Sequence record: NC_019399.1
Length of the DNA stretch: 64,000 nt
From: Escherichia phage vB_EcoM_ACG-C40
Direction: 5' to 3' (one strand)
Shown: in pieces, positions 18,283 through 23,271 of the stretch
Position numbering within the stretch: position 1 is the stretch's first letter
Layout: each line of letters begins with the position of its first letter
Translations under genes and position numbers: made by a program
Notes under the pieces: generated by a model
What the model was told of the DNA's origin: nothing
Database searches by the model: none
What the model saw: only the letters and a program-made list of their open reading frames with translations

Positions 18283-19251
18283 TTATTTCAGAAGAGTAAC
18301 CTCAGCAATTTCTTCCCAACCGTTTTTGTCGGTCATAATAAAGTCAGCAAGATAAAGAGCAGTACGCAGTGAAACATTACGTAAACGGTTAACATTGACT
18401 TTCATCCATGATAATGCTTTATAAGTTTCTTCATCAGAAAGACCGCGCTTTTGCATCATGTCGGTTGAAAGAATAACATCTTCAACCCTGACCATAATTT
18501 CTTCATTAGTGTGAACACCCAAATCTAAATAAACTGAGCGGGACACTAATGCTTGTAAATGTGGAGCAAGTTTAGTACCACGGTCTAATTCGCGGTCAAT
18601 GTCAACGTTTGTGATAAAAACAATCGTTCCTTTAAATTCAAACTCACGCTCAATGCCTTTTTCTTCTAAGTAAGAAGATGCAGTGCTCCAGCAGACTTTA
18701 CGGGTCTCTCCAGTGTCCAGAGCAGCTTTCAGAAGATTAAGAATGTCCATATCAGAGAAAACATCCACATCATCAATCAAAAGGACAGAATTCTCTTCAC
18801 GATTATTCCAAAGCTGCTCATAAAGACCAATACCAGAGATTTTACCATTAATGCTTTTATATTCAATGTATCCATTATCATTTGCTTTATTTAAAGCTTT
18901 ATCTAAAGAATACGTTTTACCAATACCCGCCGCACCAGAGATAATTAATGAACGAATGTTTCCGTTAATAATACCATTCGTCATCATTCCCATAACATTA
19001 AATCTTTTATTAATGCGGGTTTTCATATCTTCATATGATTCTTTAACTTCTTCAACTTTTACACCATCATATGAAATGTCTGATTTGTAAACCCAAACAC
19101 CGCGACGCTTACCGTCAATTTCAACAAAAACTTTACCATCTCCTTGTGCATCTACCGGAGCATTATCTGGGAACCATTCGCCTAAGAGCTCAAAAGTTCC
19201 AGAGATTTCTTTACCAAAGTAGATACCCTTATTGATAGTTACAGTTTTCAT
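18283..19251 (-). CDS. P-loop ATPase with N-terminal extra domain
   Basis: Walker A SGAAGIGKT and Walker B LLIDDVD; ATG 19251 has a GGAG SD (track start is GTG). Confidence 0.6.
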   Translation of the reverse strand: MKTVTINKGIYFGKEISGTFELLGEWFPDNAPVDAQGDGKVFVEIDGKRRGVWVYKSDISYDGVKVEEVKESYEDMKTRINKRFNVMGMMTNGIINGNIRSLIISGAAGIGKTYSLDKALNKANDNGYIEYKSINGKISGIGLYEQLWNNREENSVLLIDDVDVFSDMDILNLLKAALDTGETRKVCWSTASSYLEEKGIEREFEFKGTIVFITNVDIDRELDRGTKLAPHLQALVSRSVYLDLGVHTNEEIMVRVEDVILSTDMMQKRGLSDEETYKALSWMKVNVNRLRNVSLRTALYLADFIMTDKNGWEEIAEVTLLK

Positions 19252-19320
19252 TTTATTCTCCAATTTCACATTTGTTTTGATAGGGTAATAGTATCACACT
19301 ACTACCCTGCTGTAAACAAT

Positions 19321-19584
19321 TTATTTTAATGTTTGCCAAATTTTTACTGCTTCGCGACGAGATACTTCTACAGCTCCAAGTTCTACAGCTTTTTGGCGTC
19401 GCCGAGCGTGTAAGTCATAATGTTTAATGCGTTTATCTTGAAACCAAGAACGTTTCATTCCTATTGCTTCTGCCATTTCGTGAAGCTCTTCAATATCTCC
19501 ATCAGTGAACATATGACAATTTTTAGTTGGATGACCGCGAAGTTTCCATCCATGATTCATTAAAACATCTACGTAAACTGTCAT
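19321..19584 (-). CDS. hypothetical protein (MTVYVD...GW...CHM motif)
   Basis: 87 aa; ATGA-coupled to the upstream small ORF. Confidence 0.45.
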   Translation of the reverse strand: MTVYVDVLMNHGWKLRGHPTKNCHMFTDGDIEELHEMAEAIGMKRSWFQDKRIKHYDLHARRRQKAVELGAVEVSRREAVKIWQTLK

Positions 19585-19730
19585 TGATTCTTCTCCAAAT
19601 AAGTTTCGATAATTTTCTGGGCGAGATAAACCGCGTTATCTTCAGTTGCGTCTTCTAAGAAACTTTCAAAACACTCTGAAATTTCTTCTGTATCAATCAA
19701 CTTTTTTACTTCAATTGGTGTAATTTTCAT
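19581..19730 (-). CDS. small acidic ORF, 49 aa
   Basis: hand translation MKITPIEVKKLIDTEE...; stop overlaps the next ATG; not in ORF track. Confidence 0.35.
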   Translation of the reverse strand: MKITPIEVKKLIDTEEISECFESFLEDATEDNAVYLAQKIIETYLEKNQ

Positions 19731-19788: not shown

Positions 19789-19826
19789 TTGTAAACAATT
19801 TTGTGAAAAATTTTTGAAATAAAAAA

Positions 19827-19845
19827 GGGGACCTCTAGGGCCCCC
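19827..19845 (-). terminator. intrinsic terminator (hairpin plus U6)
   Basis: ggggacctctagggcccc then a T-run on the minus strand. Confidence 0.55.
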
Positions 19846-19854
19846 TTTATGCTT

Positions 19855-20340
19855 TTATTCCATTTCTATTATATGCATGCTCTTTTTGCTATCAAAATAT
19901 ATGTTTTTAACTGTTAACTCCGAATTAATTGGCAATAAAAACTCTCTTTCATAATCCACCATAGAAAGATTATCATAAAGCTTATTAAGCTTATCATCAT
20001 CAATCTGGCCAGATTCTTCAATTGCGATTAAATTTTCTAAAATTTCAATCATAGCAGTTGAATAGTCAAAAACGTTTGCATTTTTTAACACTATTAAAAC
20101 ATTAGTCATATAGCGTTCTGCTGCAAATGTTTCAGCTATATGAGATTCACTACTAAAGGAAGTTATTCTTTTAAATTTGATTCTCCTATTAACTTCAAAC
20201 TTATGAGATAGTACTTCCTCTATTGCAAGTCCTCTAAAAAGCATGTCTTTAATCTCAAGTTTGTCTTTAATGTAATCATTAACACGCTTATGATTAAAAT
20301 CATTAATTTTGTTGCCAAGGCATTTCATTAAAATATGCAT
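19855..20340 (-). CDS. hypothetical protein, about 161 aa
   Basis: ATG 20340 with SD; track start is TTG; own promoter and terminator. Confidence 0.5.
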   Translation of the reverse strand: MHILMKCLGNKINDFNHKRVNDYIKDKLEIKDMLFRGLAIEEVLSHKFEVNRRIKFKRITSFSSESHIAETFAAERYMTNVLIVLKNANVFDYSTAMIEILENLIAIEESGQIDDDKLNKLYDNLSMVDYEREFLLPINSELTVKNIYFDSKKSMHIIEME

Positions 20341-20387
20341 TGTGTTTCTCTTCAATTTTTAAAGAACGATTAATTAACTACAAATAT

Positions 20388-20417
20388 ATTATAATATGCT
20401 TTATGATAGAAGTAAAC
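20388..20417 (-). promoter_or_regulatory. early promoter (GTTTAC, 18 bp, TATAAT)
   Basis: gtaaac 20412..20417; attata 20388..20393. Confidence 0.6.
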
Positions 20418-20448
20418 AATTTTGTGAAAAATTTTTGAAATAAAAAAG

Positions 20449-20463
20449 AGAGCCCGAAGGCTC
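20449..20463 (-). terminator. intrinsic terminator (GAGCC-UUCG-GGCUC plus U-run)
   Basis: gagcccgaaggctc followed by TTTTTTATTT on the minus strand. Confidence 0.6.
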
Positions 20464-20467
20464 CCTA

Positions 20468-21481
20468 TCATTTATAATAACTTCGGTGGTTTTCAAGATA
20501 AACCCTCTCAAGGAAGTCATCCCAAAAACCCATGTCTACTTTTTGCTGCATACCGTTCTTAGAAGCTTCAGTAGATGCTGCTTCTACTTGATCGACCACA
20601 TCTTCCAAAAACTCTTGAACCGTTTTAAATGGATGTTTACCCAACTTCACGTCGAGAATAAATGGAGCATCTTGGAGTGGATAAACCAAGTCACCAGTTT
20701 TGTAAATTTCCAATAGTTGGAGTCCACCACGGCAAGCATGACTCAGAGCTTTCCAGTCAATACCTTCATTGGCTTCGGCCTTACGAGCACGTTCACCGTA
20801 TTCAGCATCTAATTTGTTCAGTGACTGCTTAAGCTCAATAAGAGAAAGCGTTGTCTGATATTTACGACCCAACACTGTGTAGAACGTCTGTGGGCCTGTT
20901 TTCTCATGATTATGGAACACCCATTCACAGAATTCGTTTTCTGGAAGACGATGCTTAATATCTTCAACTTTAGTACGACGCTGCTTAATAGAACCATCTT
21001 CTTGGTAATCAACCCATTGCTCAGGGATTTGATTAACTACTTTCAATACATCACGTAATGCAGCCAAACGAGAACCCTTAACGCCGTATTTAGAAGCTTG
21101 CTTACGGACATATCCTAAATAGGATTTCATGTTAGTCGTATAAAAACGAGAACGGTTGTCTTGAATAAACTTCCACACATCAGGCAAATCAGATTTAACC
21201 ACTAGTTCAGGTGGAGTGTGAAGCATATCCAATGCTACAGTTTCACCATCTGCTGCTAATTTAAAGAAATACTTAAGACTATACAATTCGTGGTCAATAT
21301 CATCTTTAGTGTTTTTAGATGATGTGTTGTTAGTGTTTTTACTCATGTGCTCTTTAACATTTCCGATAAGAATATCACGAGCAGGAGGAACAAAGATTTC
21401 TTTAAAATCTACATCAGATTCTGGGGTAGAAGTTCCATAAAGATGACTACCAAAATAGCTTTTCATTACTGTTTTCATCAT
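20468..21481 (-). CDS. Pol-beta-superfamily nucleotidyltransferase-like protein
   Basis: 337 aa; N-terminal FGSHLYGTSTPESDVDF (GS...DxD) plus a downstream Asp (ALDMLH). Confidence 0.6.
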   Translation of the reverse strand: MMKTVMKSYFGSHLYGTSTPESDVDFKEIFVPPARDILIGNVKEHMSKNTNNTSSKNTKDDIDHELYSLKYFFKLAADGETVALDMLHTPPELVVKSDLPDVWKFIQDNRSRFYTTNMKSYLGYVRKQASKYGVKGSRLAALRDVLKVVNQIPEQWVDYQEDGSIKQRRTKVEDIKHRLPENEFCEWVFHNHEKTGPQTFYTVLGRKYQTTLSLIELKQSLNKLDAEYGERARKAEANEGIDWKALSHACRGGLQLLEIYKTGDLVYPLQDAPFILDVKLGKHPFKTVQEFLEDVVDQVEAASTEASKNGMQQKVDMGFWDDFLERVYLENHRSYYK

Positions 21482-21939
21482 TCAGCCTTATATTCAATAA
21501 CAGGACATACTTTAGCTTTACGAGCTTTTAAAAATTCAACGATAATCGATTTCTTGGGTTGAATAGGAGGTAAACCTTTATACGCCCTATCAATATTTTC
21601 TACGTGTAAAGCATAATCCTTTTTCCATTTATAATCTTTATATTTTTCACGCAGTTGTGCAGGAATAACAAATGAACCGATAATAAGTAAAACAAGCAAA
21701 ATGGCAAGTATAAATGCTGATGGAATAAGAGTCCATAAACTACCAAAAATAAGCCATTTCTGTATGATTTCTGCGCAGATGATAGTTAGACCTACGAGTA
21801 TAGTACATCCGAAAAAAGAAACGAAAAATGTAGGGATAACAATAGACCAAAAGTATGCGCACAGCGTCTTAGGTCGTTGCCATTCATCGTTAAACAATTT
21901 GAATAATTTATAGTGCCAAGAGTTTTCATTAATAATCAT
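21478..21939 (-). CDS. polytopic membrane protein
   Basis: 153 aa; several hydrophobic helices; ATGA-coupled to the NTase gene. Confidence 0.5.
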   Translation of the reverse strand: MIINENSWHYKLFKLFNDEWQRPKTLCAYFWSIVIPTFFVSFFGCTILVGLTIICAEIIQKWLIFGSLWTLIPSAFILAILLVLLIIGSFVIPAQLREKYKDYKWKKDYALHVENIDRAYKGLPPIQPKKSIIVEFLKARKAKVCPVIEYKAE

Positions 21940-21941
21940 AA

Positions 21942-22463
21942 TTATCCTTTCATTGAAGGCGTAACGGTTGTTAAATACTTAATCATAGCTTCAGCTTCTG
22001 ATTTTGACAATGAAATTTCTCCATTGTTTTGACGAATAGAAATAAAATCCGGATGACGGTCACCACCAGCTTTTAAAACACACATATAAGTATCAACTTC
22101 GCCTTCAATATTTGAAATGATTGAAGCAGTTCCACATGAATGTGGTTTTTGATAAATCAATACAGCTTTTCTTCCACCGTTTGACTGTTCATAAACTTTT
22201 AATACATCAAACAAATCACTTCTTTTATCAATAGCTAAAATGTTATTTTCATCTTCAATGTTAAATCCTTCGGATACTTCATAAAGTGTCACCCATAAAT
22301 CGCCAATATCAATAACAGCGTTCACTTTTCCATGACTTTCAAGAGCATGACAAATTTTCTTGATTTCGTCATAACTCATTTTAATAATATCATCTCCTTG
22401 AATAAGGAAGATGTCATTTTTAAATTCAACACGAATTAAACCACTTCCACTTGAAATAAACAT
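21942..22463 (-). CDS. hypothetical protein, paralog A
   Basis: 173 aa; C-terminus SKSEAEAMIKYLTTVTPSM resembles the next ORF. Confidence 0.5.
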   Translation of the reverse strand: MFISSGSGLIRVEFKNDIFLIQGDDIIKMSYDEIKKICHALESHGKVNAVIDIGDLWVTLYEVSEGFNIEDENNILAIDKRSDLFDVLKVYEQSNGGRKAVLIYQKPHSCGTASIISNIEGEVDTYMCVLKAGGDRHPDFISIRQNNGEISLSKSEAEAMIKYLTTVTPSMKG

Positions 22464-22469
22464 ATTTCC

Positions 22470-23003
22470 TCACTTTGAAATCATAGTTGGAATGACAGAA
22501 TCGAGATAAGTCTTTAGCGCAATAGCTTCGTCTTTGGTAAATGTGACAATATACGATCGAAAATCATCAATTTGACGAATAGTTAAGACATCACCATCTT
22601 CATAGCATTTTGATACGTTTAAAACAGTTTCATCATTCTGATTGCAAGCGTTAGTAATAATAGCATTGCAATTTTTGAGCCATTTTAAACTATGTTTTCT
22701 TTCATTAGAATAATAAAAATATTTAATCTTATCTATAAAACTATCCCAATGGATAACTGATAAACACATTGACTCACTTTTAATATTAAATCCTGGGCAT
22801 GAAGAATAAAAATGAATTTTGTGCTCATCATTGATGCTTACTATTTTATCAGTATAAGGATATTCAATTTGGGTTAAATGAATGATTTCACTAGGCGTAA
22901 AATATAGCATATCGTCTTCTTGCGTCAAACGATACATGTTATTTACTTTTTCTATAGCCAATTCACCAAAAAGCGGACTAACTTCTAATACTAATCGTTT
23001 CAT
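22470..23003 (-). CDS. hypothetical protein, paralog B
   Basis: ATG 23003 with AAAGGA SD; C-terminus TKDEAIALKTYLDSVIPTM. Confidence 0.5.
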   Translation of the reverse strand: MKRLVLEVSPLFGELAIEKVNNMYRLTQEDDMLYFTPSEIIHLTQIEYPYTDKIVSINDEHKIHFYSSCPGFNIKSESMCLSVIHWDSFIDKIKYFYYSNERKHSLKWLKNCNAIITNACNQNDETVLNVSKCYEDGDVLTIRQIDDFRSYIVTFTKDEAIALKTYLDSVIPTMISK

Positions 23004-23004
23004 A

Positions 23005-23271
23005 TTAATCCTTTTTATTGGCACGAATTTGTTCTAAAATTTTAGAATATTCCTTTGTATCAGATTTACGTACAATTGATACACTATAAGGCATACTATC
23101 GGTGTCTTTTATAAAGCGTTCCAAATGACACTCTAACAAAATTTCTGGATTATAAATCGTGTACATCAAATTACCTGTTGCTCCACGATATTGGCAGATT
23201 TCTACTGATTGAACACCATTCCATAATTTTGTTAAAACTAAATCACCTACTTCTAATTTAGGAAAGCCCAT
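23005..23271 (-). CDS. hypothetical protein
   Basis: track ORF starts at TTG; first ATG at 23271. Confidence 0.4.
   Translation of the reverse strand: MGFPKLEVGDLVLTKLWNGVQSVEICQYRGATGNLMYTIYNPEILLECHLERFIKDTDSMPYSVSIVRKSDTKEYSKILEQIRANKKD

Follow-up and report, generated by a model that had tools for sequence, protein, structure and literature searches.

The locus at positions 20468 to 21481 raises the question of which reaction a Pol-beta-type nucleotidyltransferase (NTase) performs for a T-even phage, and on which substrate. It was analysed within a window of 64,000 nucleotides, i.e. the whole stretch of DNA from Escherichia phage vB_EcoM_ACG-C40 (NC_019399.1), which is a T-even (Tequatrovirus) genome segment; bases 19800–22000 share 96.5–97.5% identity with phage T2 and vB_EcoM_FT. 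The 337-aa open reading frame named in the initial annotation, which had been made from the sequence alone, was found there on the minus strand and corresponds to nrdC.11:

20468..21481, minus strand: nrdC.11 coding sequence, 337 aa (open reading frame list and tblastn; RefSeq label 'nucleotidyltransferase')

By tblastn, NrdC.11 of the window shows 98.5% identity with its T4 counterpart, 99.4% with that of T2 and 100% with that of ECML-134; in the T2 and T4 records the second ATG is used as start, giving 336 aa. The T4 (NP_049709) and T2 (YP_010073746) proteins are full-length orthologues in the same genomic slot, flanked by the tk/rI region and nrdC.10. Downstream of nrdC.11, the window and T2 both carry a Mod-like ADP-ribosyltransferase cassette. 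PHROG 388 'nucleotidyltransferase' was matched at E = 8e-137. Homologues amounted to 2899 clusters at 90% identity; at 50% identity there were 3421 representatives, and E was below 1e-30 for 827 of these. The protein is strongly conserved across the Straboviridae. A nucleotidyltransferase domain in nrdC.11 was pointed out in 2006 (PMC1524935), and neither the annotated gene nor its placement in the family is new.

NrdC.11 is almost certainly a Pol-beta NTase of the RlaP family, whose name was given by Burroughs and Aravind (2016), as cited in later papers. The Pfam profile PF10127 (RlaP, 'RNA repair pathway DNA polymerase beta family') was matched with 44.3 bits against a cut-off of 23 bits (E = 2.4e-11), the match spanning aa 7–135 and profile positions 23–142 and hence the N-terminal ~130 residues only; the same profile was matched by 138 of 139 clade members. 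Together with the PHROG 388 match and the 2899 clusters, this places the homology signal far above chance. Comparison of the clade profile with eleven canonical RlaPs in hhalign returned a probability of 95% (E = 2.6e-8) over the NTase domain, and a canonical RlaP query recovered nrdC.11 of the window directly (tblastn, E = 6e-7). Significant alignment to canonical RlaP was limited to the N-terminal 87–130 residues of NrdC.11; the C-terminal halves were collinear over 103 columns, which at E = 0.07 (hhalign) is not significant alone. All Pol-beta motifs of RlaP were present, namely hG[GS], [DE]x[DE] and a third carboxylate on a neighbouring strand. Judged from its sequence, the N-terminal domain is a member of this family with intact catalytic motifs. 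The earlier assignment to the Pol-beta superfamily was thereby borne out, and the placement by profiles that had been proposed as a check led to PF10127 with its catalytic residues kept, not to a family lacking catalysis.

Residue conservation was assessed in an alignment of 139 diverse representatives with 35–55% identity, from which two short motif regions were located:

21407..21451, minus strand: codons from the GS motif (aa 11-12) to the DxD motif (aa 23-25), based on conservation in 139 homologues
21293..21301, minus strand: codons of D61-I62-D63, likely the third catalytic carboxylate (predicted from conservation, the strand in the AF2 model and alignment)

The peptide FGSHLYGTSTPESDVDF was found in the open reading frame, and the GS motif followed by DxD that had been noticed in it, G11-S12 and D23-x-D25, proved nearly invariant. 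G11 and S12, along with Y132, H248, R251 and P268, were invariant in the 139 homologues; D23 and D25 were present in 138 of them, and K131 as well as D242-W243-K244 were near-invariant (K244 in 138/139). The third Asp, which had been placed about 50 residues later, has to be relocated: conserved aspartates do exist, at D61 (132/139), D63 (135/139; 95–97% for the two) and D85 (96%), but D78, 53 residues past D25, is unconserved among the homologues. In the AF2 model, D61 and D63 belong to the β-strand 62–68, 36–38 residues past D25. This strand pairs in the profile alignment with the strand of the invariant D88 in canonical RlaP, which makes D63 or D61 the better candidate for the third carboxylate and a probable metal ligand. 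D85, positioned in helix 81–87 of the model, was considered as third catalytic Asp and rejected in favour of D61/D63 on strand position and alignment.

The AF2 model of NrdC.11, calculated from the 139-sequence alignment (pLDDT 94.7, pTM 0.84), was two-lobed and comprised the NTase core (aa 1–113), helices (aa 119–150), a β-rich subdomain (aa 155–209) and a helical part (aa 214–336). The protein was divided as follows:

21143..21481, minus strand: Pol-beta NTase core, aa 1-113, with G11-S12, D23-x-D25, D61/D63 and D85 (PF10127, AF2, conservation, hhalign)
20759..21085, minus strand: clade-specific insertion, aa ~133-241 (AF2; missing from the Krischvirus orthologue and from canonical RlaP)
20471..20758, minus strand: C-terminal helical domain, aa 242-337, with the motif D-W-K-A-x-S-H-A-x-R, in which H248 and R251 are invariant

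The insertion is built in the order helix, five- to six-stranded β subdomain (aa 155–209) and helix, and carries the conserved motifs KYG(I/V)KGSR and YGxRA. The Krischvirus orthologue of 232 aa does without aa ~133–241, and the canonical RlaP proteins, at 250–277 aa, have no insertion either; from these shorter lengths NrdC.11 was recognised as a long-form RlaP with an insertion of ~105 aa. Several features are common to NrdC.11 and canonical RlaP: both belong to the same Pfam family, both keep GS, DxD and the third-carboxylate strand, both consist of an N-terminal NTase and a C-terminal helical domain, and both are associated with RNA ligase or repair operons. The K-x3-Y-A-L-R region of canonical RlaP and the C-terminal domain of NrdC.11 are collinear, again at the non-significant E = 0.07, and have a similar motif, K-x3-(H/Y)-A-x-R. 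NrdC.11 differs in being ~80 aa longer, owing to the insertion at aa 133–241, and in belonging to sequence cluster 5, whereas the characterised Pseudomonas RlaPs, which are short and canonical, belong to cluster 1a. It is a modestly new observation that the members of the NrdC.11 clade, with their 105-aa insertion, form a long-form paralogue distinct from canonical RlaP.

Sequence searches of the PDB with NrdC.11, with the clade profile and with the canonical RlaP profile returned no related solved structure, and searches of NCBIfam and PADLOC with NrdC.11 gave no matches. The Foldseek matches, to 3c18 and kanamycin nucleotidyltransferase, were weak (E ~4e-3, TM-scores 0.25–0.31).

Gene neighbourhoods of the clade were then compared. 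One genome per prokaryotic species was scanned, yielding 156 loci with full-length relatives (32–54% identity), the best 80 of which were analysed; neighbours within 6 kb were detected by ORF clustering, Pfam checks and tblastn counts. RNA repair neighbours were present within 6 kb in 33 of these 80 bacterial and archaeal loci (the best 80 of 156). Canonical RlaP was encoded directly downstream of the NrdC.11-like gene in ~22 of the 80, RtcB was a neighbour in 9, a Pnkp kinase-phosphatase-ligase in 8, Hen1 in 7, Ro60/TROVE in 4 and RtcA in 2, and 17 of the 80 had RtcB, Pnkp, Hen1, RtcA or Ro60 within 6 kb. A Nitrosospira locus (L046) shows the order Ro60, RtcB, RtcA, NrdC.11-like, RlaP, Hen1, Pnkp, and three Asticcacaulis loci (L063, L083, L089) the order Hen1, Pnkp, NrdC.11-like, RlaP. 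Elsewhere the NrdC.11-like gene is followed on one strand by an NT5C-like protein, a T4-type Pnkp and an Rnl1-type ligase (L015), or a kinase-phosphoesterase-Rnl1 fusion lies 3 nt upstream of it (L059). Among viruses, the homologue of phage phiM12 is flanked by two RNA ligase genes, and Rnl1, RtcB or Pnkp occurred within 8 kb in five distant viral contigs (80 viral loci).

The recurrence of end-healing and sealing enzymes, including the types used by T4, connects RNA repair with the long-form clade in its own right. In bacteria the NrdC.11-like protein is a separate paralogue, often directly upstream of canonical RlaP; that the long form is frequently encoded in tandem with it is likewise modestly new. 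The phage has the long form only. Neither pseT and rnlA nor another RNA repair partner gene was found in the window, and none lies nearby in T4, on whose map pseT and rnlA lie near 134–137 kb and nrdC.11 near 55 kb, ~80 kb apart. NrdC.11, Rnl1 and Pnkp had nearly identical genus counts across T4-like phages. This agrees with a joint role but counts for little, since each of the three is conserved in the Straboviridae and common descent may account for the match.

The first RNA repair pathway came from T4, whose Pnkp and Rnl1 reverse the cleavage of tRNA-Lys by PrrC; RloC-type nucleases have been proposed to beat this repair by also excising the wobble nucleotide. Two RlaPs of Pseudomonas (P. 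fluorescens PfRlaP and P. aeruginosa PaRlaP), encoded between rtcB and rtcA, were characterised by Carruthers, Fatma and Huang (bioRxiv 10.64898/2025.12.29.696909, December 2025). According to this preprint, both add 1–2 NMPs onto an RNA 3'-OH from any NTP and from dATP as well, and prefer Mn2+; DNA and protein are not substrates, E. coli proteins remaining unlabelled. The preferred substrate was the 5' half of a cleaved tRNA mimic, though full-length tRNA and rRNA-sized species were labelled as well, and when a tRNA without one anticodon-loop nucleotide was treated with RlaP before ligation, aminoacylation was partly restored. The same authors proposed RlaP as an antidote to RloC-like nucleases, where a nucleotide is excised after the cut, and named T4 NrdC.11 as a family member (cluster 5) 'of unknown function' (bioRxiv 10.64898/2025.12.29.696909). 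For jumbo phages, the distribution of RlaP was found to mirror that of RNA ligases, and restoration of the RloC-excised nucleotide was predicted (Iyer et al. 2021, PMC7824862). No phenotype of T4 nrdC.11 was reported in the literature searched; a T4 deletion from nrdC.11 to mobD.3 is viable on the laboratory host (PMC9825161), which fits an accessory, host-dependent function.

By analogy with the Pseudomonas enzymes, NrdC.11 probably adds nucleotides to RNA 3' ends, and modification of RNA is the favoured one among the options of the initial annotation, given the RlaP family and the recurrent RNA repair neighbours. That NrdC.11 helps Pnkp and Rnl1 against nucleotide-excising anticodon nucleases is plausible, at somewhat below even chances. 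The explanation as a whole, a long-form member of the RlaP branch that acts as an RNA 3'-end NTase aiding Pnkp/Rnl1 repair, is slightly better than evenly balanced. Extrapolated from the two Pseudomonas RlaPs, D23, D25 and D61/D63 would bind two metal ions, probably Mn2+, and the enzyme would extend the 3'-OH of a broken RNA by one or two NMPs, taken from NTPs and added independently of a template. NrdC.11 would act early in infection alongside the phage Pnkp and Rnl1: where a RloC-type host anticodon nuclease has cut a tRNA and excised a nucleotide, NrdC.11 would return the nucleotide to the 5' tRNA half, and sealing would then regenerate a full-length, partly functional tRNA. On hosts without such nucleases nrdC.11 would be dispensable.

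If NrdC.11 does re-add the excised nucleotide, it is a third, unrecognised component of the T-even RNA repair pathway, and a further step in the arms race between phage and host would find its explanation; the idea of nucleotide restoration has already been advanced by others for the RlaP family (bioRxiv 10.64898/2025.12.29.696909; PMC7824862).

Some observations count against this explanation. The characterised RlaPs are short, canonical and from another sequence cluster; the clade has the ~105-aa insertion, and its C-terminal homology to canonical RlaP stands at E = 0.07; template-independent addition gives the right base only part of the time; and in T4 as in the window nrdC.11 is not accompanied by RNA repair genes. 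The frequent pairing of the long form with canonical RlaP in bacteria also means that the two may differ in function.

In the initial annotation nrdC.11 had been described as part of an operon with a membrane protein:

21478..21939, minus strand: upstream 153-aa membrane ORF, PHROG 944 (ATGA overlap with the nrdC.11 start; translationally coupled)
20440..20466, minus strand: intrinsic terminator, UUCG tetraloop hairpin and U tract (terminator scan, RNA fold)

The ATGA coupling was as described, the ATG of nrdC.11 overlapping the TGA of the 153-aa ORF. The strong UUCG terminator was recovered too: directly after the nrdC.11 stop, at 20447–20466, lies the hairpin GGGAGCC-UUCG-GGCUCUC followed by U6, with a folding energy of -14.7 kcal/mol and z = -3.65 against shuffles. 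The unit has early-type promoters, ends at this terminator and is an early unit of host-takeover genes. In the 153-aa ORF two long hydrophobic stretches (aa ~25–66 and 62–98) were recognised; its AF2 model showed two long helices at low confidence (pLDDT 63, pTM 0.27), and a PDB sequence search with it gave no match. In 33 of 80 viral loci a homologue of it occurs upstream of nrdC.11; the two genes are immediate neighbours in 11 of these, and one to three small genes stand between them in the others. Many T-even copies are truncated. No homologue is present in T4, where mobD, an HNH homing endonuclease, occupies the slot upstream of nrdC.11, nor in any of 80 cellular loci. A narrow distribution of the membrane ORF, suggested by 23 clusters in a word-indexed search, was dropped when tblastn on the viral loci found more homologues, with 23–32% identity in other Tevenvirinae. 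The AAA+ gene nrdC.10 lies downstream of nrdC.11 in 36 of 80 viral and 0 of 80 cellular loci. The adjacency of both genes was read as inherited gene order in T4-like phages, i.e. as synteny within the Tevenvirinae, which leaves room for a phage-specific functional link of nrdC.11 with the membrane ORF or nrdC.10. Of the membrane-protein operon, the coupling to a hydrophobic ORF thus stood, but not its functional weight: a pairing with a membrane partner is unsupported because T4 has mobD there and the cellular homologues of NrdC.11 all lack one, the truncated copies pointing the same way.

Other RNA ends were considered as substrates, with NrdC.11 acting on the trimmed 3'-CCA of host or phage tRNAs, or tagging host RNA. 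Canonical RlaPs can use any of the four NTPs and do label full-length tRNA as well as species of rRNA size, the T-even nrdC.11 is not beside Pnkp/Rnl1, and the gene is part of an early unit of host-takeover genes; T4 tRNA maturation, however, depends on the host CCA enzyme, which counts against the CCA end. No match to PF01743 (CCA-adding enzyme/poly(A) polymerase) was obtained in Pfam at E <= 0.01, and the neighbours of the clade are RtcB, Pnkp, Hen1 and Rnl1, not CCA-adding enzymes or exoribonucleases. These healing and sealing neighbours favour repair of internal breaks over CCA ends or tagging, so that action on another RNA end was judged unlikely, if worth keeping in view. The same neighbours, all RNA repair genes, speak against nucleotidylylation of a protein or small molecule in the manner of an AMPylator, an aminoglycoside nucleotidyltransferase or an MNT antitoxin. 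The Foldseek hits on which such a reading could draw cover the shared Pol-beta core only (TM-scores 0.25–0.31), neither HEPN nor another toxin partner was seen nearby, and E. coli proteins are not labelled by canonical RlaP; this activity is very improbable.

Synthesis of a signalling oligonucleotide fared no better. The initial annotation had favoured a cyclic-oligonucleotide synthase-like enzyme, and as a CD-NTase/cGAS-like synthase of a cyclic or linear signal NrdC.11 could point to its CD-NTase-like size and to the generic GS...DxD...D signature, which is superfamily-wide and the only feature common with CD-NTase, cGAS and OAS. No CD-NTase, SMODS or Mab-21 profile was matched in Pfam, NCBIfam or PADLOC, the fold matches listed contained no cGAS, OAS or CD-NTase chain, and neither a conserved effector-type neighbour nor a CBASS-like effector was seen in 80 cellular and 80 viral loci. 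With no profile or fold link to CD-NTase/cGAS, this reading retains next to no probability; the initial annotation was correct as to the superfamily, but the direction it favoured was wrong. On a reading modelled on the Hailong system, NrdC.11 would polymerise deoxyadenylate, other DNA or an oligonucleotide signal like HalB, either in a HalA/HalB-type pair with the membrane ORF or as counter-defence that keeps host HalA channels closed. HalB, a maker of oligo-dA in host defence (Tan et al. 2025, as cited in later papers), is a protein of 217 aa (PDB 9dbh/9dbj) without the NrdC.11 insertion. It shares 16% identity with NrdC.11 and was matched by neither the NrdC.11 nor the canonical RlaP profile. 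A counterpart of the HalB priming tyrosine is missing, because the C-terminal tyrosines of NrdC.11 are unconserved, as is the tail: Y335 and Y336 fall into gaps in most homologues, and a Tyr within the last six residues occurs in 44%. Moreover, the membrane ORF encodes a small protein of 153 aa for which the PDB gave no sequence match, and it is absent from T4 and from the 80 cellular loci, and DNA is not extended by canonical RlaP. HalB-like activity is accordingly held to be highly unlikely.

Compared with these readings, the repair of RNA 3' ends alongside Pnkp and Rnl1 is retained as the preferred explanation. A further reading, regarded as improbable, starts from the long form itself: rather than a phage copy of RlaP, the NrdC.11 clade would be a functionally distinct paralogue whose insertion sets acceptor or nucleotide specificity, and in bacteria an obligate partner of the downstream canonical RlaP. 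Of this pair the T-even phages would have kept only the specialised half, as counter-counter-defence against anticodon nucleases that excise a nucleotide. The production of a HalB-like oligonucleotide by NrdC.11 would be a more remote variant of it. An example of the specificity set by the insertion would be an enzyme that restores the wobble nucleotide in a single tRNA only.

The region around nrdC.11 on the minus strand of the window was resolved into the following features:

18283-19269, minus strand, nrdC.10, 328 aa, predicted AAA+/STAND-like ATPase
19321-19584, minus strand, 87-aa ORF with DUF4031, between nrdC.11 and nrdC.10
19581-19730, minus strand, 49-aa ORF, also between nrdC.11 and nrdC.10
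19791-19844 and 20412-20465, 54-nt direct repeat, copies 85% identical, either side of the 166-aa ORF
19855-20355, minus strand, 166-aa Mod-like ORF, matching PHROG 832 'RNA polymerase ADP-ribosylase'
21942-22463 and 22470-23024, minus strand, tandem pair of T4 mobD.1/y05I paralogues (Pfam T4_y05I_N + T4_y05I_C)

The 166-aa ORF downstream of nrdC.11 shares 27-30% identity with genes annotated as ModA/ModB, contains the FRG, SFS and ExE motifs, and is equipped with its own early-type promoter (GTTTAC-17-TATAAT) and its own terminator. This ORF and its flanking repeats look like an inserted cassette, which was found in T2 and approximately 42 phage records (at least 90% identity) and is missing from the T4 and ECML-134 genomes. 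Since the 87-aa and 49-aa ORFs are present in ECML-134 and absent from T2 and T4, the window unites insertions that occur separately in its relatives. The mobD.1/y05I pair, whose Pfam domains are described as 'putative transcription factor', lies directly upstream of the 153-aa membrane ORF and is represented in T4 by one copy, compared with two here.

In 36 of 80 viral loci, nrdC.10 follows nrdC.11 on the downstream side at a distance of 0.4-3 kb, and its conservation across genera (61-100%) exceeds that of nrdC.11 (50-100%). It was never found alongside NrdC.11 homologues in the 80 cellular loci. RB49-type phages encode a 232-aa nrdC.11 orthologue (e.g. Krischvirus vB_Eco_TB34, locus L008, 5004-5702) devoid of the helix/beta-subdomain/helix insertion at aa ~133-241, and this protein is a natural minimal nrdC.11.

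In approximately 22 of 80 bacterial loci (the best 80 of 156), a canonical RlaP of 250-277 aa is encoded immediately downstream of the NrdC.11-like long form, the two genes often overlapping by 4 nt (L016, L029, L041, L046, L061, L063, L065, L070, L081, L082 and others). This arrangement points to a module of two paralogues that are not redundant in their roles. For canonical RlaP, the helical C-terminal portion aligned weakly (E = 0.016) with the retron Ec86 effector (PDB 7v9x/8qbl), annotated as 'ribosyltransferase/DNA-binding protein', a match that may be due to chance.

Two loci contain compact cassettes:

L015, 62-3803, NrdC.11-like, NT5C-like, T4-type Pnkp, 143-aa ORF and Rnl1-type ligase
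L059, 3760-6984, kinase-phosphoesterase-Rnl1 fusion, followed by NrdC.11-like

Both are MAG contigs, binned to Bathyarchaeota (L015) and Rickettsiales (L059), and may be of viral origin.

In many GenBank and UniRef entries, nrdC.11 orthologues are named 'thioredoxin', and one is named 'putative HNH homing endonuclease'. As the source of these names appears to be either 'nrdC' in the locus name or the adjacent gene mobD, they were regarded as annotation errors.
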